From assembly GCF_024223415.1 (NCBI RefSeq), contig NZ_CP100500.1: a stretch of 64,000 bases of DNA; one strand, written 5' to 3'. The notes beneath the pieces are model-generated. The model ran no database searches. It saw nothing but the letters and a program-made list of their open reading frames with translations, and had not been told where the DNA came from. Of the stretch, positions 1 through 19,960 are shown piece after piece. Source of the DNA: Escherichia coli. GTDB taxonomy: Bacteria; Pseudomonadota; Gammaproteobacteria; Enterobacterales; Enterobacteriaceae. Both the position numbers and the translations under genes were made by a program. Each line of letters starts with the position of its first letter. Position 1 is the stretch's first letter.

Positions 1-1
1 A

Positions 2-780
2 TTTAATTCCCGGCAGGCGGTTGAGCGCCTTCCTGGTGAAGATCCGGCTCAACTGAACGATCCGGCTTACCGCCGTCTGCGTATCATTACCGATAACCTC
101 AAACAGGAAGAGCACGCGATTGTCCAGGTGGAAGAAATGCAGGCGGTAAATGCCGTGCTGTATGGCAAATACACCATGGAAGGAGACCAGTTCGAGAAAA
201 TTGAGGTCGATTTTGGCAGGTCGACGAAGAATAACATTACGCAGGCCAGTGGTAAAAAATGGTCTGAGCACGATCGTGACACGTTCGATCCTGCGCATGA
301 TATTGACCTCTACTGCGACCAGGCCAGCGGCCTTGTGAATATTGCCATTATGGACGGTACCGTCTGGCGTCTGCTGAATGGTTTTAAGCTGTTCCGCGAA
401 AAACTGGATACCCGTCGCGGTTCAAATTCGCAACTCGAAACGGCAGTGAAAGACCTGGGGGCGGTGGTGTCTTTCAAAGGGTATTACGGTGATCTGGCCA
501 TTGTGGTGGCGAAAACGTCTTATGTGGCAGAGGACGGTACCGAAAAACGTTATCTGCCAGACGGCACGCTGGTCCTGGGGAATACTGCTGCAGATGGGAT
601 CCGTTGTTACGGTGCCATTCAGGATGCACAGGCGTTGTCTGAAGGAGTGGTGCCTCTTCCCGTTATCCGAAACACTGGCTGACGGTGGGGGATCCCGCCC
701 GTGAATTTACCATGACGCAGTCCGCGCCGCTGATGGTGTTGCCGGACCCGGATGAGTTTGTGGTGGTACAGGTGAAATAA
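2..780 (+). pseudogene. E: Major capsid protein, lambda gpE-like; 5' end lies outside the window; reading frame switches near 641-646
   Basis: Translation from position 2 matches my recollection of lambda gpE (..RRLPGEDPAQLNDPAYRRLRII.., EEMQAVNAVLYGKYTM). The conserved C-terminus (SGASSRYPKHWLTVGDPAREFTMTQSAPLMVLPDPDEFVVVQVK, stop 778-780) is in a different frame from the upstream part, which stops at 680-682. Confidence 0.6.
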
Positions 781-787
781 TCCGTGA

Positions 788-817
788 GCGGGGGCGAAAT
801 GCCCCCGTGTCTTTTTT
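788..817 (+). terminator. Intrinsic-terminator-like hairpin (GC stem 789-795/801-807, then T6) between capsid gene and FI
   Basis: cGGGGGC-gaaat-GCCCCCg followed by gtcTTTTTTc, read directly. Confidence 0.4.
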
Positions 818-831
818 CACAGGGGGCTGAT

Positions 832-1194
832 ATGGCAACGAAAGAGCAAAATCTGAAACGGCTTGATGAACTGGCCCTGATTCTGGGGCGTGAGCCGGAT
901 ATATCCGGGAGTGCCGCAGAGATAGCGCAGCGGGTGGCGGAATGGGAAGAGGAAGCAGAGGACAAAAACCAGGAGAGTGATGAGAACGAAAGGCATTTGA
1001 TGACGTATAGCCACTCCACTGGCGGGGATGAAATGAGCACTGTTCGTGTACTCAAAACCCTGCATGTGGCGGGAAAACATCCGCATGATGACAGTGATAT
1101 GGAGATTGTTGTTACAGGTATGACTGTCAGAGTTGATCCAGTGAATGTTGCGGAACTTGTCCTGGAGGGGCTTGTTACAGATGAAAGTTATTAA
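832..1194 (+). CDS. FI: Head assembly / DNA-packaging protein, lambda FI-like
   Basis: ATG at 832 behind AGGGGG; position between E and FII; C-terminal region resembles lambda FI as I recall it. Confidence 0.55.
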   Translation: MATKEQNLKRLDELALILGREPDISGSAAEIAQRVAEWEEEAEDKNQESDENERHLMTYSHSTGGDEMSTVRVLKTLHVAGKHPHDDSDMEIVVTGMTVRVDPVNVAELVLEGLVTDESY

Positions 1195-1543
1195 TATCAG
1201 GGATAACGGTTTTGATACAGCCATTGCCCGGGCTGATGAAACGATACGCGGGCATATGGGAACGTCAGCCACCATTACATCCGGTGAGCAGCCCGGCGCA
1301 GTAATACGTGGTGTTTTTGATGACCCTGAAAATATCAGCTATGCCGGACAGGGCGTGCGCGTTGAAGGCTCCAGCCCGTCCCTGTTTGTCCGGACTGATG
1401 ATGTGCGGCAACTGCGGCGTGGAGACACGCTGACCATCGGTGAGGAAAACTTCTGGATAGACCGGGTTTCGCCGGATGATGGCGGAAGCTGTCATCTCTG
1501 GCTTGGGCGGGGCGTACCGCCTGCCGTTAATCGTCGCCGCTGA
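1181..1543 (+). CDS. FII: Head-tail joining protein, lambda FII-like
   Basis: AIARADETIRGHMGTSATITSGEQPGAVIRGVFDDPENISYAGQGVRVEGSSPSLFVRTDDVRQLRRGDTLTIGEENFW matches lambda gpFII almost residue for residue. Confidence 0.8.
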   Translation: MKVINIRDNGFDTAIARADETIRGHMGTSATITSGEQPGAVIRGVFDDPENISYAGQGVRVEGSSPSLFVRTDDVRQLRRGDTLTIGEENFWIDRVSPDDGGSCHLWLGRGVPPAVNRRR

Positions 1544-1554
1544 AAGGGGGATGT

Positions 1555-2130
1555 ATGGCCATACAGGGTCTTGAGCAGGCCGTTGAAAACCTCAGCCGTA
1601 TCAGCAGAACGGCGGTGCCTGGTGCCGCCGCAATGGCCATTAACCGCGTGGCCACAACGGCGATTAATCAGTCTTCGTCTCAGGTCGCCCGTGAAACCCG
1701 GGTGCCGAGAAAACTTGTTAAAGAGCGATCCAGACTGAAACGGGCTACGGTCAGAAATCCGAACGCAAAAATTATCGTTAACCGCGGCGATCTTCCTGTG
1801 ATTAAGCTGGGGATCAGGATGCTGGGACGTCGCCCGAACAGCATACTCAAAGCCGGTCAGCATCGTTATCAGCGGGCATTCATCCAGCGACTGAATAATG
1901 GGCGCTGGCATGTTATGCAACGTCTGCCAGAAGCCAGGTATGCGAAGGGCAATGACGATAAGGGAAGGAAAAAGCGTAATCGTCTTCCCATTCAGGTGGT
2001 GAAAATTCCGATGTCGGCCCCACTGAAACAGGCTTTTGATGAGAACGTTAACCGTATCCGACGCGAACGTCTGCCAAAAGAACTGAGCTATGCGCTGAAA
2101 CAACAACTGAGGATTGTGATAAAGCGATGA
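1555..2130 (+). CDS. Z: Tail completion protein, lambda Z-like
   Basis: 191 aa, order and size as lambda gpZ. Confidence 0.75.
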   Translation: MAIQGLEQAVENLSRISRTAVPGAAAMAINRVATTAINQSSSQVARETRVPRKLVKERSRLKRATVRNPNAKIIVNRGDLPVIKLGIRMLGRRPNSILKAGQHRYQRAFIQRLNNGRWHVMQRLPEARYAKGNDDKGRKKRNRLPIQVVKIPMSAPLKQAFDENVNRIRRERLPKELSYALKQQLRIVIKR

Positions 2131-2522
2131 AAAATACTGATATCCGTACAGCCGTACTGGATGCACTGGAGAAGCATGACACCGGGGCGACGTTTTTTGA
2201 TGGTCGCCCCGCTGTTTTTGATGAGGCGGATTTTCCGGCAGTTGCCGTTTATCTCACCGGCGCTGAATACACGGGCGAAGAGCTGGACAGCGATACCTGG
2301 CAGGCGGAGCTGCATATTGAAGTTTTCCTGCCTGCTCAGGTGCCGGATTCAGAGCTGGATTCGTGGATGGAGTCCCGGATTTATCCGGTGATGAGCGATA
2401 TCCCGGCACTGTCAGATTTGATCACCAGTATGGTGGCCAGTGGCTATGACTACCGGCGCGACGATGATGCGGGCCTGTGGAGTTCAGCCGATCTGACTTA
2501 TGTCATTACCTATGAAATGTGA
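2127..2522 (+). CDS. U: Tail terminator protein, lambda U-like
   Basis: 131 aa, 4-nt overlap with Z, same size as lambda gpU. Confidence 0.8.
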
Positions 2523-2529
2523 GGACGAT

Positions 2530-18448: not shown

Positions 18449-18492
18449 CTGTGTTTGTATACAGTGTTATTTTTAACTGTATGGATAAACAG
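18449..18492 (-). promoter_or_regulatory. Two tandem LexA (SOS) boxes upstream of the dinI-like gene
   Basis: CTG-N10-CAG motifs at 18449-18464 (cactgtgtttgtatacagtg) and 18477-18492 (aactgtatggataaacagtg), 16 and 44 nt from the start codon. Confidence 0.55.
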
Positions 18493-18552
18493 TGTCAAGA
18501 GGAACGGAACGCCAAAAGGTGATGTGTTTTTGTTACCATTATTTACAAACAG

Positions 18553-18584
18553 AAAAACCCCAGACTGTGAAATCTGGGGTTTTT
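18553..18584. terminator. Bidirectional intrinsic terminator
   Basis: AAAAA-CCCCAGA-ctgtgaaa-TCTGGGG-TTTTT. Confidence 0.5.
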
Positions 18585-18704
18585 ATAAAGTGCACGTGCA
18601 TTTCACGTGTATATTTTTGTCTTGTTCAGGTCTGTTTGTTGTCTGGTCAGTGTCCGTAATTATCTGTTTTTATTGTCGATGTCCGGTTGCAGTCCTGTCA
18701 AAAA

Positions 18705-18730
18705 TGGTGGAGCTGGCGGGAGTTGAACCG
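18705..18730 (-). other. Fragment matching the 3' end of tmRNA (ssrA); possible relic attachment-site core
   Basis: Minus strand reads ccggttcaactcccgccagctccacca, which matches my memory of the last about 25 nt of E. coli ssrA ending in CCA; no full tmRNA is present. Confidence 0.4.
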
Positions 18731-18811
18731 GCGAGCCTTTCGGCTCCCCCATGCGCCCCACAATAATTCATATGTGCGCGTGCATACGAGAAAAAACACT
18801 TGTTATATCTG

Positions 18812-19373
18812 CTAAAGCTGCATCAGCCTTTCCACCAGTTGTTCTTTACGGGCAACGAGCCAGCCGTGTTGCTCCAGATAAAATTTAAACCGTTCCAGAG
18901 TGCATACCATCGCATCGGCGGGGACTTTTTCTGTGAACTCTACCTGACCGTGTTTATCAAAGTGGATCAGTAATGCGCATCCATCATTTGGGGTGGGTGA
19001 GTTTTGTGTTGCTGGTGGTTGTTTTTGGCTGAAATAACAGTCTTCCAGTTTTTCGAACACTTCCCATGCCTGATCGGTTTCGAGCATTTTGGCATGGCGG
19101 GCTGCGCCACGTTCTGTCCAGAGGATAAGGGAGCGGGCATTTTTACCAACTAACCCGATTGTTTCGGGTCTGTTCTTAAACTCGCGTAATTCGTTTTTTT
19201 TCAATTTTAAAGTAATGCTTTCCTACCACGAATCGCGTCGTGTTGTTCAGAAAGTTATCAGAAATGTTTTTGATTTTTGTTCCGTATAACTGCGCCAGAA
19301 GTTCAGTTGTAATAACGGGGACCTGGTTGTGGGTGATTGCAGGAAGAGTGTCGACAGAAATTTGAGTGGGCAT
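18812..19373 (-). pseudogene. ORF6N/antirepressor-like phage regulatory gene, split by a frameshift in an A8 run (19194-19201)
   Basis: N-part MPTQISVDTLPAITHNQVPVITTELLAQLYGTKIKNISDNFLNNTTRFVVGKHYFKIEKK and C-part ELREFKNRPETIGLVGKNARSLILWTERGAARHAKMLETDQAWEVF form one domain but lie in two frames. Confidence 0.55.
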
Positions 19374-19536
19374 AACGATAACTCCGTACATTTGAAAATT
19401 ATCGCCACCTTCAGGTTCCAATCATCATGGTGGCGAACTGTGCGGGGTTGGAACTACCGGGTACGGAAACCGGCGAGCCTTTCGGCTCCCCCACACAGCC
19501 CGCCATAAATCGCGAATGTGACTGTGCAAACGATAT

Positions 19537-19558
19537 GAAAAAAGACGCGGGCGCGTCT
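19537..19558 (-). terminator. Intrinsic-terminator-like hairpin on minus strand
   Basis: Minus strand: GAGACGC-gccc-GCGTCT followed by TTTTTT. Confidence 0.4.
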
Positions 19559-19843
19559 CATATCGCTCCGTAAACATCCGGGGTTCCAATCCCGACGCCA
19601 GATTTTGCTGACGCGTTGGAAATATAGCCCCGGAGGATAAAAACTGTCAACGGGTAAAAAATTTCCGTTATCAGGAATGTATAAAATTAAAGCAATCGAT
19701 CAAAAAATCCTTTCTGCAAAACTAAAAAAGATTTCAATAAAATCAGGCAGTTAAAAACGCTGAAAAACGGTATAAAAAAGCATCTCAAAATCCTGTTTTT
19801 TCTTTCAGATACAATATCTTATTTGATTTTTTAAAACCTGCCA

Positions 19844-19960
19844 GTGTGGTACATGGATATCGATACCACCGCCAATTATAAACTGGGCGGTGCACAGCAA
19901 CATGATAGCGTACGCCTCGATCCGTGGGTGTTTATGTTCTCAGCAGGATATCGTTTTTAA
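19844..19960 (+). pseudogene. ompW: Orphan 3' fragment of ompW (C-terminal about 37 codons); likely prophage-host junction
   Basis: Encodes ..WYMDIDTTANYKLGGAQQHDSVRLDPWVFMFSAGYRF-stop, matching the OmpW C-terminus; in-frame stop at 19832-19834 and no upstream ompW sequence. Confidence 0.6.

Follow-up and report, generated by a model that had tools for sequence, protein, structure and literature searches.

A probable PPompW-type lambda-like prophage and its attR junction in the 3' end of Escherichia coli ompW

The DNA of interest is a stretch of 64,000 nt from an Escherichia coli genome (contig NZ_CP100500.1 of RefSeq assembly GCF_024223415.1; hereafter the window, meaning the whole stretch analyzed), in which phage genes give way to a fragment of the outer-membrane protein gene ompW. 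All of the sequence left of position ~19840 is prophage: positions 1–19841 hold the late head-tail-fibre half of a lambda-like element, followed by its cargo end (Table 1). Beyond it lie (i) a short 3' fragment of ompW, (ii) a hairpin terminator at 19974–19996, and (iii) the first chromosomal gene, yciE, which is convergent with the fragment. No ompW 5' sequence was found anywhere in the window, and no tRNA gene. The arrangement is very probably that of the right half of a prophage of the published "PPompW" type (positions 1–19863), integrated by a phage that carries its own version of the ompW tail; the right-hand attachment site, attR, would then occupy 19842–19962.

The prophage assignment rests on comparison with lambda (NC_001416), whose late proteins were searched against positions 1–21000 of the window using tblastn. 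Fourteen lambda late proteins match in strict colinear order, at 31–100% amino acid identity. Lambda FI gave no match to the open reading frame (ORF) at 784–1194, between E and FII; this ORF was recognized by its protein family (phrog_92). The overlap of G and T contains the -1 slippery heptamer GGGAAAG (read G GGA AAG, in the G frame) at 3684–3690, with the T ORF overlapping in the -1 frame, so that a putative programmed frameshift site joining the two is present as in lambda. Together, the tblastn matches, the phrog_92 match and the heptamer uphold the gene order E-FI-FII-Z-U-V-G/T-H-M-L-K-I-J-stf given in a first-pass annotation of this DNA, and the cargo genes that it placed after the late region do lie there, between a tfa-like gene and attR. 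The order stood, while four features had been omitted: a frameshift in E, the 1302-aa length of J, the tfa-like gene at 14862–15437, and the lack of a lom gene in the late region.

The ompW fragment translates as NLPVWYMDIDTTANYKLGGAQQHDSVRLDPWVFMFSAGYRF followed by a stop codon, and a TAA at 19832–19834 directly precedes it. Its earlier placement at 19844–19960, with about 37 residues, was essentially right (38 codons and a stop), the full extent being 19835–19960 with 41 codons and a stop. The TAA, said to lie immediately upstream of 19844, is three codons away rather than adjacent; the position of the fragment just ahead of the convergent yciE (20020–20526, minus strand) was correct. In strains with an empty site, such as K-12, the match to the window begins at 19835 and extends rightwards only.

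To locate the boundary, the K-12 attB site, the window attR, and attL and attR of the two closest lysogens, GF4 and Ch1, were aligned (alignments A1 and A2). In attR, the sequence is phage through 19841 and host from 19864 on. The attL sites of GF4 and Ch1 are the mirror image—host up to a 22-bp block of identity, phage beyond it. On these alignments, strand exchange would have to fall within that block, CAGTGTGGTACATGGATATCGA. In Ch1, a G-to-C single-nucleotide polymorphism at position 5 of the block is present in attL and attR alike (Ch1 form CAGTCTGG, at ~31935 of extracted locus L005 and ~9920 of L006; window, GF4 and K-12 form CAGTGTGG). The block opens an imperfect att repeat of 121 bp, which ends two bases past the ompW stop. 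The first-pass reading of this junction as the attR of a phage integrated within ompW is borne out by these boundaries, and the duplicated att core that it anticipated is the 22-bp block in the 121-bp repeat, with the attL side taken from the relatives.

The other end of the element was observed in three related lysogens. Over 17800–21200, GF4 shares 99.2% identity with the window, and it has lost the whole head-tail region; Ch1 carries a colinear copy of the entire prophage at 96–99% identity; and in O78 strain 3 the chromosomal flank matches that of the window at 100% identity while the prophage is a different PPompW variant, so that this strain is not the source of the window. At attL of GF4, 46 nt separate a 639-nt ompW from a convergent int gene of 1131 nt, which is followed by xis and an exonuclease gene, and attL is arranged in the same way in Ch1 and O78 strain 3. 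The OmpW encoded at attL has 212 residues in all three, as in K-12. The 126-nt ompW pseudogene of the window recurs at attR of O78 strain 3; in GF4, Ch1, O157:H7 (Z1504) and O78 strain 3, these 126 nt are labelled a partial OmpW pseudogene by the NCBI Prokaryotic Genome Annotation Pipeline (PGAP).

Elucidation of the attL copies revealed where their ompW genes end in phage DNA: the last ~100 nt are phage-derived and diverged from K-12. In the 26 beta-strand codons of this phage-borne tail, 8–9 differ from K-12 and every difference is synonymous, while only ~19% would be synonymous by chance (P ~2e-6); in the stretch NYKLGGAQQHDS, by contrast, 7–8 of the 12 residues are replaced relative to K-12. 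This signature of purifying selection indicates that the phage copy has been maintained as coding sequence for the OmpW C-terminus. In line with this, PGAP calls the gene at the ompW–int junction ompW, not a pseudogene, in 4/4 of the rows listed from 1709 genomes. Read from the sequence, the phage family appears to leave the gene undisrupted by replacing the 3' end of ompW, in the manner of phage 21 and e14 at icd. From these relatives we infer that the window's strain also carries an intact ompW at its attL, which lies beyond the window; the displaced fragment within the window would be a non-functional, harmless relic. The first-pass annotation had expected merely the 5' part of ompW at attL, and had taken an intact ompW at this locus to speak against phage integration. 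The first expectation is contradicted by the full-length, 639-nt (212-codon) genes of GF4, Ch1 and O78 strain 3, and the second is invalid: since the phage supplies a replacement 3' end at attL, an intact ompW at the locus is expected, and one is present in 3/3 related lysogens.

Over its full length, the Ch1 integrase shares 36% identity with lambda Int (E = 4e-65), and it has the Pfam domains Arm-DNA-bind_1 and Phage_integrase. In the P' arm, the interval from the surrogate stop codon to the end of the int gene has three tandem copies of CTGCAAAAC; they are kept in two att variants, with varying spacers. One exact copy lies in the P arm of the window, at 19714–19722, and is conserved in O78 strain 3; the whole 64-kb window contains only two exact copies. 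It is plausible that these repeats are arm-type Int sites. A terminator-like hairpin after the surrogate stop in GF4 (CTGGTTATCAAATAACCAG followed by T6) was given no weight, as the consensus scan did not flag it in Ch1.

We propose the following mechanism. A tyrosine recombinase of the lambda Int type, with an arm-binding domain, would recombine phage attP with attB at codons 174–181 of ompW, with strand exchange inside the 22-bp block. To the right of the block, attP would bear the phage's own, diverged version of the last ~100 nt of ompW, including a stop codon. The host's ompW 5' part would then be joined in frame to the phage tail at attL, generating a full-length, 212-residue OmpW, while the native tail would be displaced by ~45–50 kb to attR, where it has no start codon or promoter and has a stop just upstream.

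Several points weigh against this proposal for the present strain. This strain's attL, int and ompW are beyond the sequence analyzed, and an intact ompW here is an extrapolation from relatives. Among complete E. coli genomes, none matched as much as 80% of positions 1–21000; look-ups by exact protein gave no entry for the 469-aa autotransporter or the tape measure protein, and the ten loci on record for the Z protein are at most 98.3% identical to the window. Prophages of this class are often degraded by deletions (PMC8112680), and the left end could be missing. O78 strain 3 does not share the second P-arm motif, which lies at 19760 and has one mismatch. Finally, Bobay et al. 2013 (PMC3603311) seem to list ompW among genes "disrupted" by integration; the sentence is ambiguous, and the disrupted reading is unsupported by the intact ORFs of the relatives.

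The same review-type sentence is one of two observations in favour of a simple split, in which integration leaves a truncated 5' part alone at attL and a strain without functional OmpW; the other is that the 3' fragment is all the ompW sequence in the window. Such a split is very improbable given the 212-codon genes at attL in all three related lysogens, the PGAP calls of ompW in 4/4 listed rows, and the synonymous-only changes by which the strand codons of the phage-borne tail have been kept as coding sequence. Moreover, a published case describes duplication of the fragment, not disruption of the gene (PMC9729726). Somewhat less remote, though still improbable, is that the window contains a prophage remnant whose left half (int, attL, perhaps ompW) was deleted or moved by inversion between prophages, in which case the fragment would be the genome's only ompW. 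Frequent degradation of PPompWs, and inversions between prophages at ompW and ydfJ, have been reported (PMC8112680); GF4 lacks its entire head-tail region, and the prophage in the window already has inactivating mutations. Yet its late region is complete and the window starts inside an otherwise conserved capsid gene, which argues for a largely intact element, and the complete relatives Ch1 and O78 strain 3 keep both ends. That the fragment arose independently of a phage—by local duplication or deletion, or by chance similarity—is scarcely credible: no supporting point was found, the 122/126 identity to K-12 ompW (E = 3e-57) speaks against it, and it is refuted by the exact switch between phage and host sequence at the boundary in the attL and attR alignments and by the recurrence of the same junction in 1290 genomes.

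The frequency of the junctions was assessed in 5426 complete E. coli genomes. The attR junction (query 19715–19960, ≥80% coverage) was found in 1290 of these, and the attL (ompW–int) junction in 1709. The ompW prophage, its att site and the leftover fragment are already known, described, and routinely annotated by PGAP. Nakamura et al. 2021 (PLoS Pathog; PMC8112680) introduced the name PPompW for lambda-like prophages in ompW with 121-bp attL/R, recognized by an integrase with >90% identity to EC112648_1574; they report such prophages in 44% of 767 complete E. coli genomes, all apparently defective (two via head-gene mutation), and include in the class the P08 prophage of O145:H28. O-island 57 (OI-57) of EDL933 is likewise listed at yciD (ompW).

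The prophage of the window resembles this class in its ompW site, in its 121-bp att repeat in the 3' end of ompW (19842–19962, boundary mapped against K-12 attB), in its lambda-like organization (the colinear tblastn matches from E to stf), in having a cargo locus at the far right by attR, in an apparent defect through head-gene mutation, and in an attR P arm shared with O157:H7. An exchangeable effector locus is present in 145/338 PPompWs (PMC8112680). The window contains no match, with up to 3 mismatches, to the 21-bp attB-in-PP_1 (GTCATGCAGTTAAAGTGGCGG) associated with that locus, and the cargo ORFs searched gave no match to type III effector families; we thus place it in the PPompW majority without the effector locus. 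It differs in both respects from the PPompW subset of Shiga toxin-producing E. coli (STEC) and enteropathogenic E. coli, which has attB-in-PP_1 and type III secretion effectors; its cargo is instead an autotransporter, a helix-turn-helix protein, a DinI-like protein and an IsrK/C4/antirepressor module. In O157:H7, the same ompW relic adjoins type III effector genes.

Two further comparisons bear on the fate of ompW. The Stx2e prophage of STEC O121:H10 strain RM10740 integrated in ompW by "duplicating the 126-bp C terminal fragment of ompW", giving the arrangement ompW-(prophage)-ompW* (PMC9729726). As in the lysogens above, the prophage is flanked by an intact ompW and a truncated ompW*, the 126 nt corresponding to window positions 19835–19960; the RM10740 prophage differs in bearing stx2e, while no stx genes occur among the window ORFs examined. 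A replacement 3' end carried by the element itself is also a feature of phage 21 and e14, which integrate in icd, and of phages integrating in tRNA genes. In both icd and ompW, the att core lies in the 3' end of the gene, a diverged, element-borne end keeps the length of the ORF, and the host 3' end is left as a pseudogene at the far junction. Here, the displaced end is found at the int-distal junction, at 19835–19960, while the restoration of the full ORF by a surrogate end (212-aa OmpW) was seen in the relatives only, namely GF4, Ch1 and O78 strain 3. The target gene and the integrase are different. Phage integration at icd is a case cited in PMC3603311.

Table 1. Features of the window and, in the last row, the ompW genes at attL of the relatives. 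Identities are amino acid identities to lambda (tblastn) unless stated otherwise.
Feature	Position	Strand	Evidence or remark
Major capsid gene, lambda E homologue	1–759	+	tblastn 5–759; E aa 85–298 in frame 2, aa 300–335 in frame 1; 5' end beyond window
FI-type DNA-packaging chaperone	784–1194	+	phrog_92, E = 3.2e-33; Ch1 equivalent is gpFI (PGAP)
FII head-tail joining protein	1145–1543	+	tblastn 1202–1540, 95%; phrog_82, NF049848
Z tail gene	1555–2130	+	tblastn 1555–2127, 63%
U tail gene	2127–2522	+	tblastn 2127–2519, 96%
V tail gene	2530–3270	+	tblastn 2530–3267, 94%
G and G-T tail assembly chaperones	3286–4124	+	G 3286–3705, 81%; T 3690–4121, 100%
H tape measure	4117–6696	+	tblastn 4117–6693, 90%
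M	6693–7022	+	tblastn 6693–7019, 94%
L	7022–7720	+	tblastn 7022–7717, 97%
K	7726–8469	+	tblastn 7870–8466, 93%
I	8367–9014	+	tblastn 8367–9011, 78%
J tail-tip protein, 1302 aa	9075–12983	+	tblastn 9075–12977; NF049904 lambda_TipJ, 2313 bits
Side tail fibre, stf	13042–14847	+	tblastn 13048–13959, 31% to orf-401; phrog_366, E = 2e-120
tfa-like tail-fibre/assembly gene	14862–15437	+	phrog_1141, E = 2e-61; after stf
Trimeric autotransporter, YadA anchor, Eib-like, 469 aa	15876–17285	+	Pfam YadA_anchor, E = 3e-16; match to YadA anchor chain 2lme
151-aa protein, sigma-70 region-4-like helix-turn-helix	17346–17801	+	weak family matches, E ~2e-4
DinI-like protein	18185–18433	-	phrog_189, E = 3e-26; NF007893
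Antirepressor, ORF6N/Rha type	18812–19421	-	phrog_2379 positions 1–61 in one ORF, 58–187 in the other
C4 antisense RNA	19426–19510	-	Rfam RF01695, 78.9 bits, above gathering score
IsrK small RNA	19538–19614	-	Rfam RF01394, 72.7 bits, above gathering score
Phage P arm in attR, A/T-rich	19693–19841	+	homology to unrelated ompW prophages (e.g., O157:H7) from 19693–19714
Displaced ompW 3' fragment, 41 codons and stop	19835–19960	+	122/126 nt identical to end of K-12 ompW (96.8%), E = 3e-57
22-bp identity block CAGTGTGGTACATGGATATCGA	19842–19863	+	common to attB, attL and attR; ompW codons 174–181
attR copy of imperfect 121-bp att repeat	19842–19962	+	92/121 identical to GF4 attL copy
yciE	20020–20526	-	first chromosomal gene to the right; convergent with ompW fragment
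Full-length ompW at attL of relatives	L006 9400–10038; L003 6315–6953; L008 278–916		639 nt each

The phage-borne and native tails differ in a single part of the protein: all differing residues lie between the last two membrane strands. Both termini of outer-membrane protein barrels are periplasmic, and this stretch would for that reason be the last extracellular loop (L4). At least five phage-borne versions of the loop were found, database fragments included (SYKFNGTPVKDA, SYKSNGTPVKDA, KYKSGVTTVKDS, KYKSGVNTVKDS, and the longer KYKSDGRKLAKGSYSDN); one phage-type version is five residues longer. At least two of them, SYKFNGTPVKDA and KYKSGVTTVKDS, occur in full attL variants. In two Salmonella OmpW tail fragments, by comparison, just 2–3 of these loop positions depart from E. 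coli. OmpW is the receptor of colicin S4. It has also been described as the receptor of phage RB68 (bioRxiv 10.64898/2026.04.02.716166), and as the receptor on recipient cells for TraN-alpha of F-like plasmids, with specificity altered by one loop residue (bioRxiv 10.1101/2023.02.09.527952). PPompW lysogeny might thus rewrite the tip of L4, and the loop swap could be a form of lysogenic conversion; we regard this idea, which draws on the relatives while the window shows the native tail, as speculative and rather doubtful. If true, it might mean altered susceptibility to OmpW-dependent phages or colicins, or altered plasmid uptake, in ~1/4 to 1/3 of E. coli strains. As it stands, the significance of the locus is limited: it adds a further example to a class of prophages present in ompW of 1/4 to nearly 1/2 of sequenced E. 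coli. It does carry a caution, in that an orphan 3' fragment beside a prophage is no proof of an inactivated gene, because the phage may carry a replacement end.

No donor species of the phage-borne OmpW tail was identified with a 56-aa query, which returned short fragments only. Databases also contain short C-terminal pieces of OmpW from Salmonella enterica, S. bongori, Klebsiella, Citrobacter, Kluyvera and Leclercia, a hint that integrating elements may use the same ompW site beyond E. coli. Other ompW prophage variants lack the stop before the displaced tail; in these, an ORF with an ATG of its own extends from the phage arm through to the OmpW tail (…CYCIFYNLPVWYMDID…). This ORF (P0163, 71 aa) is present on 167 contigs; it is probably a spurious call, yet a widespread one.

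The structural gene set of the window is not intact. A 1-nt deletion at 652/653 (within 641–660) changes GTGGTGGCC to GTGGTGCC in the capsid gene E and puts its last ~43 codons out of frame. The in-frame allele GTGGTGGCC is present in 11/11 relatives, the deletion being private to the window; either the gene was recently inactivated by mutation, or the assembly is in error here. A programmed frameshift was rejected, because a slippery sequence is lacking and every relative keeps the reading frame. A second lesion splits the antirepressor gene into two overlapping ORFs, by a frameshift near 19176–19204. GF4 and Ch1 have an identical 520-nt antirepressor segment, labelled "frameshifted" by PGAP in both, and so the lesion is real and inherited. 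With frameshifts in both genes, the prophage is presumably now defective, which agrees with the published view of PPompW as usually defective.

Likeness to lambda covers the late order from E to stf and tfa, 63–100% amino acid identity for most tail proteins, the G/T frameshift site, and an integrase that in Ch1 is a full-length homologue of lambda Int. The differences are that lambda integrates between gal and bio, whereas the att site here is in ompW; that FI and E are divergent, lom is lacking and the b-region cargo is another; and that J, 1132 aa in lambda, is 170 aa longer here, with a divergent C-terminus. Identity to lambda J is 95% over aa 1–836 and 54% over the divergent C-terminal domain, which suggests a receptor other than LamB. 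J also contains a 174-nt tandem duplication at 11736–12061 (Tandem Repeats Finder, TRF). The stf gene has collagen-like (Gly-X-Y) repeats of 45 nt, with ~14 copies at 13507–14134 and three more at 14425–14572 (TRF); their number is not alike in the window and Ch1.

In its cargo end, the prophage has an ordinary lambdoid "b-region" that includes an immI-like module. E. coli homologues of its trimeric autotransporter are called "immunoglobulin-binding protein" in some sources and range from ~380 to 550 aa; the window copy has a 99-nt tandem repeat at 16514–16717. The expected match to EibD structures was rejected: solved EibD fragments did not match, the YadA anchor alone did, and the protein is for this reason called "Eib-like" on database names alone. 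The 151-aa ORF that follows is conserved in GF4 and Ch1, and is named "sigma factor-like helix-turn-helix DNA-binding protein" by PGAP; it could regulate the neighbouring autotransporter gene.

Closest to attR are the C4 and IsrK RNAs, with the antirepressor gene directly downstream of them. Just upstream of IsrK/C4 is the region's best promoter-like site, the near-consensus TTGACA-18-TATATT at 19650–19621 (minus strand), and there is a terminator-like hairpin at 19559–19542. Modules of C4 or IsrK RNA with an antirepressor are known from immI of P1/P7 (c4-icd-ant) and from Gifsy-1 (IsrK-antirepressor). The window's predicted module, beside attR, is like these in the position of the RNAs immediately upstream of the antirepressor, and unlike them in that the antirepressor ORF is frameshifted in the window, GF4 and Ch1.

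To the right of the prophage, positions 21000–45000 are E. coli chromosome (yciG, the trp operon, yciO, rluB, sohB, topA and acnA), 100% identical to several complete genomes. Ordinary Rfam matches in this chromosomal part are the Trp operon leader at 28270–28363 (minus strand) and the small RNA STnc180 at 40803–41005 (plus strand).

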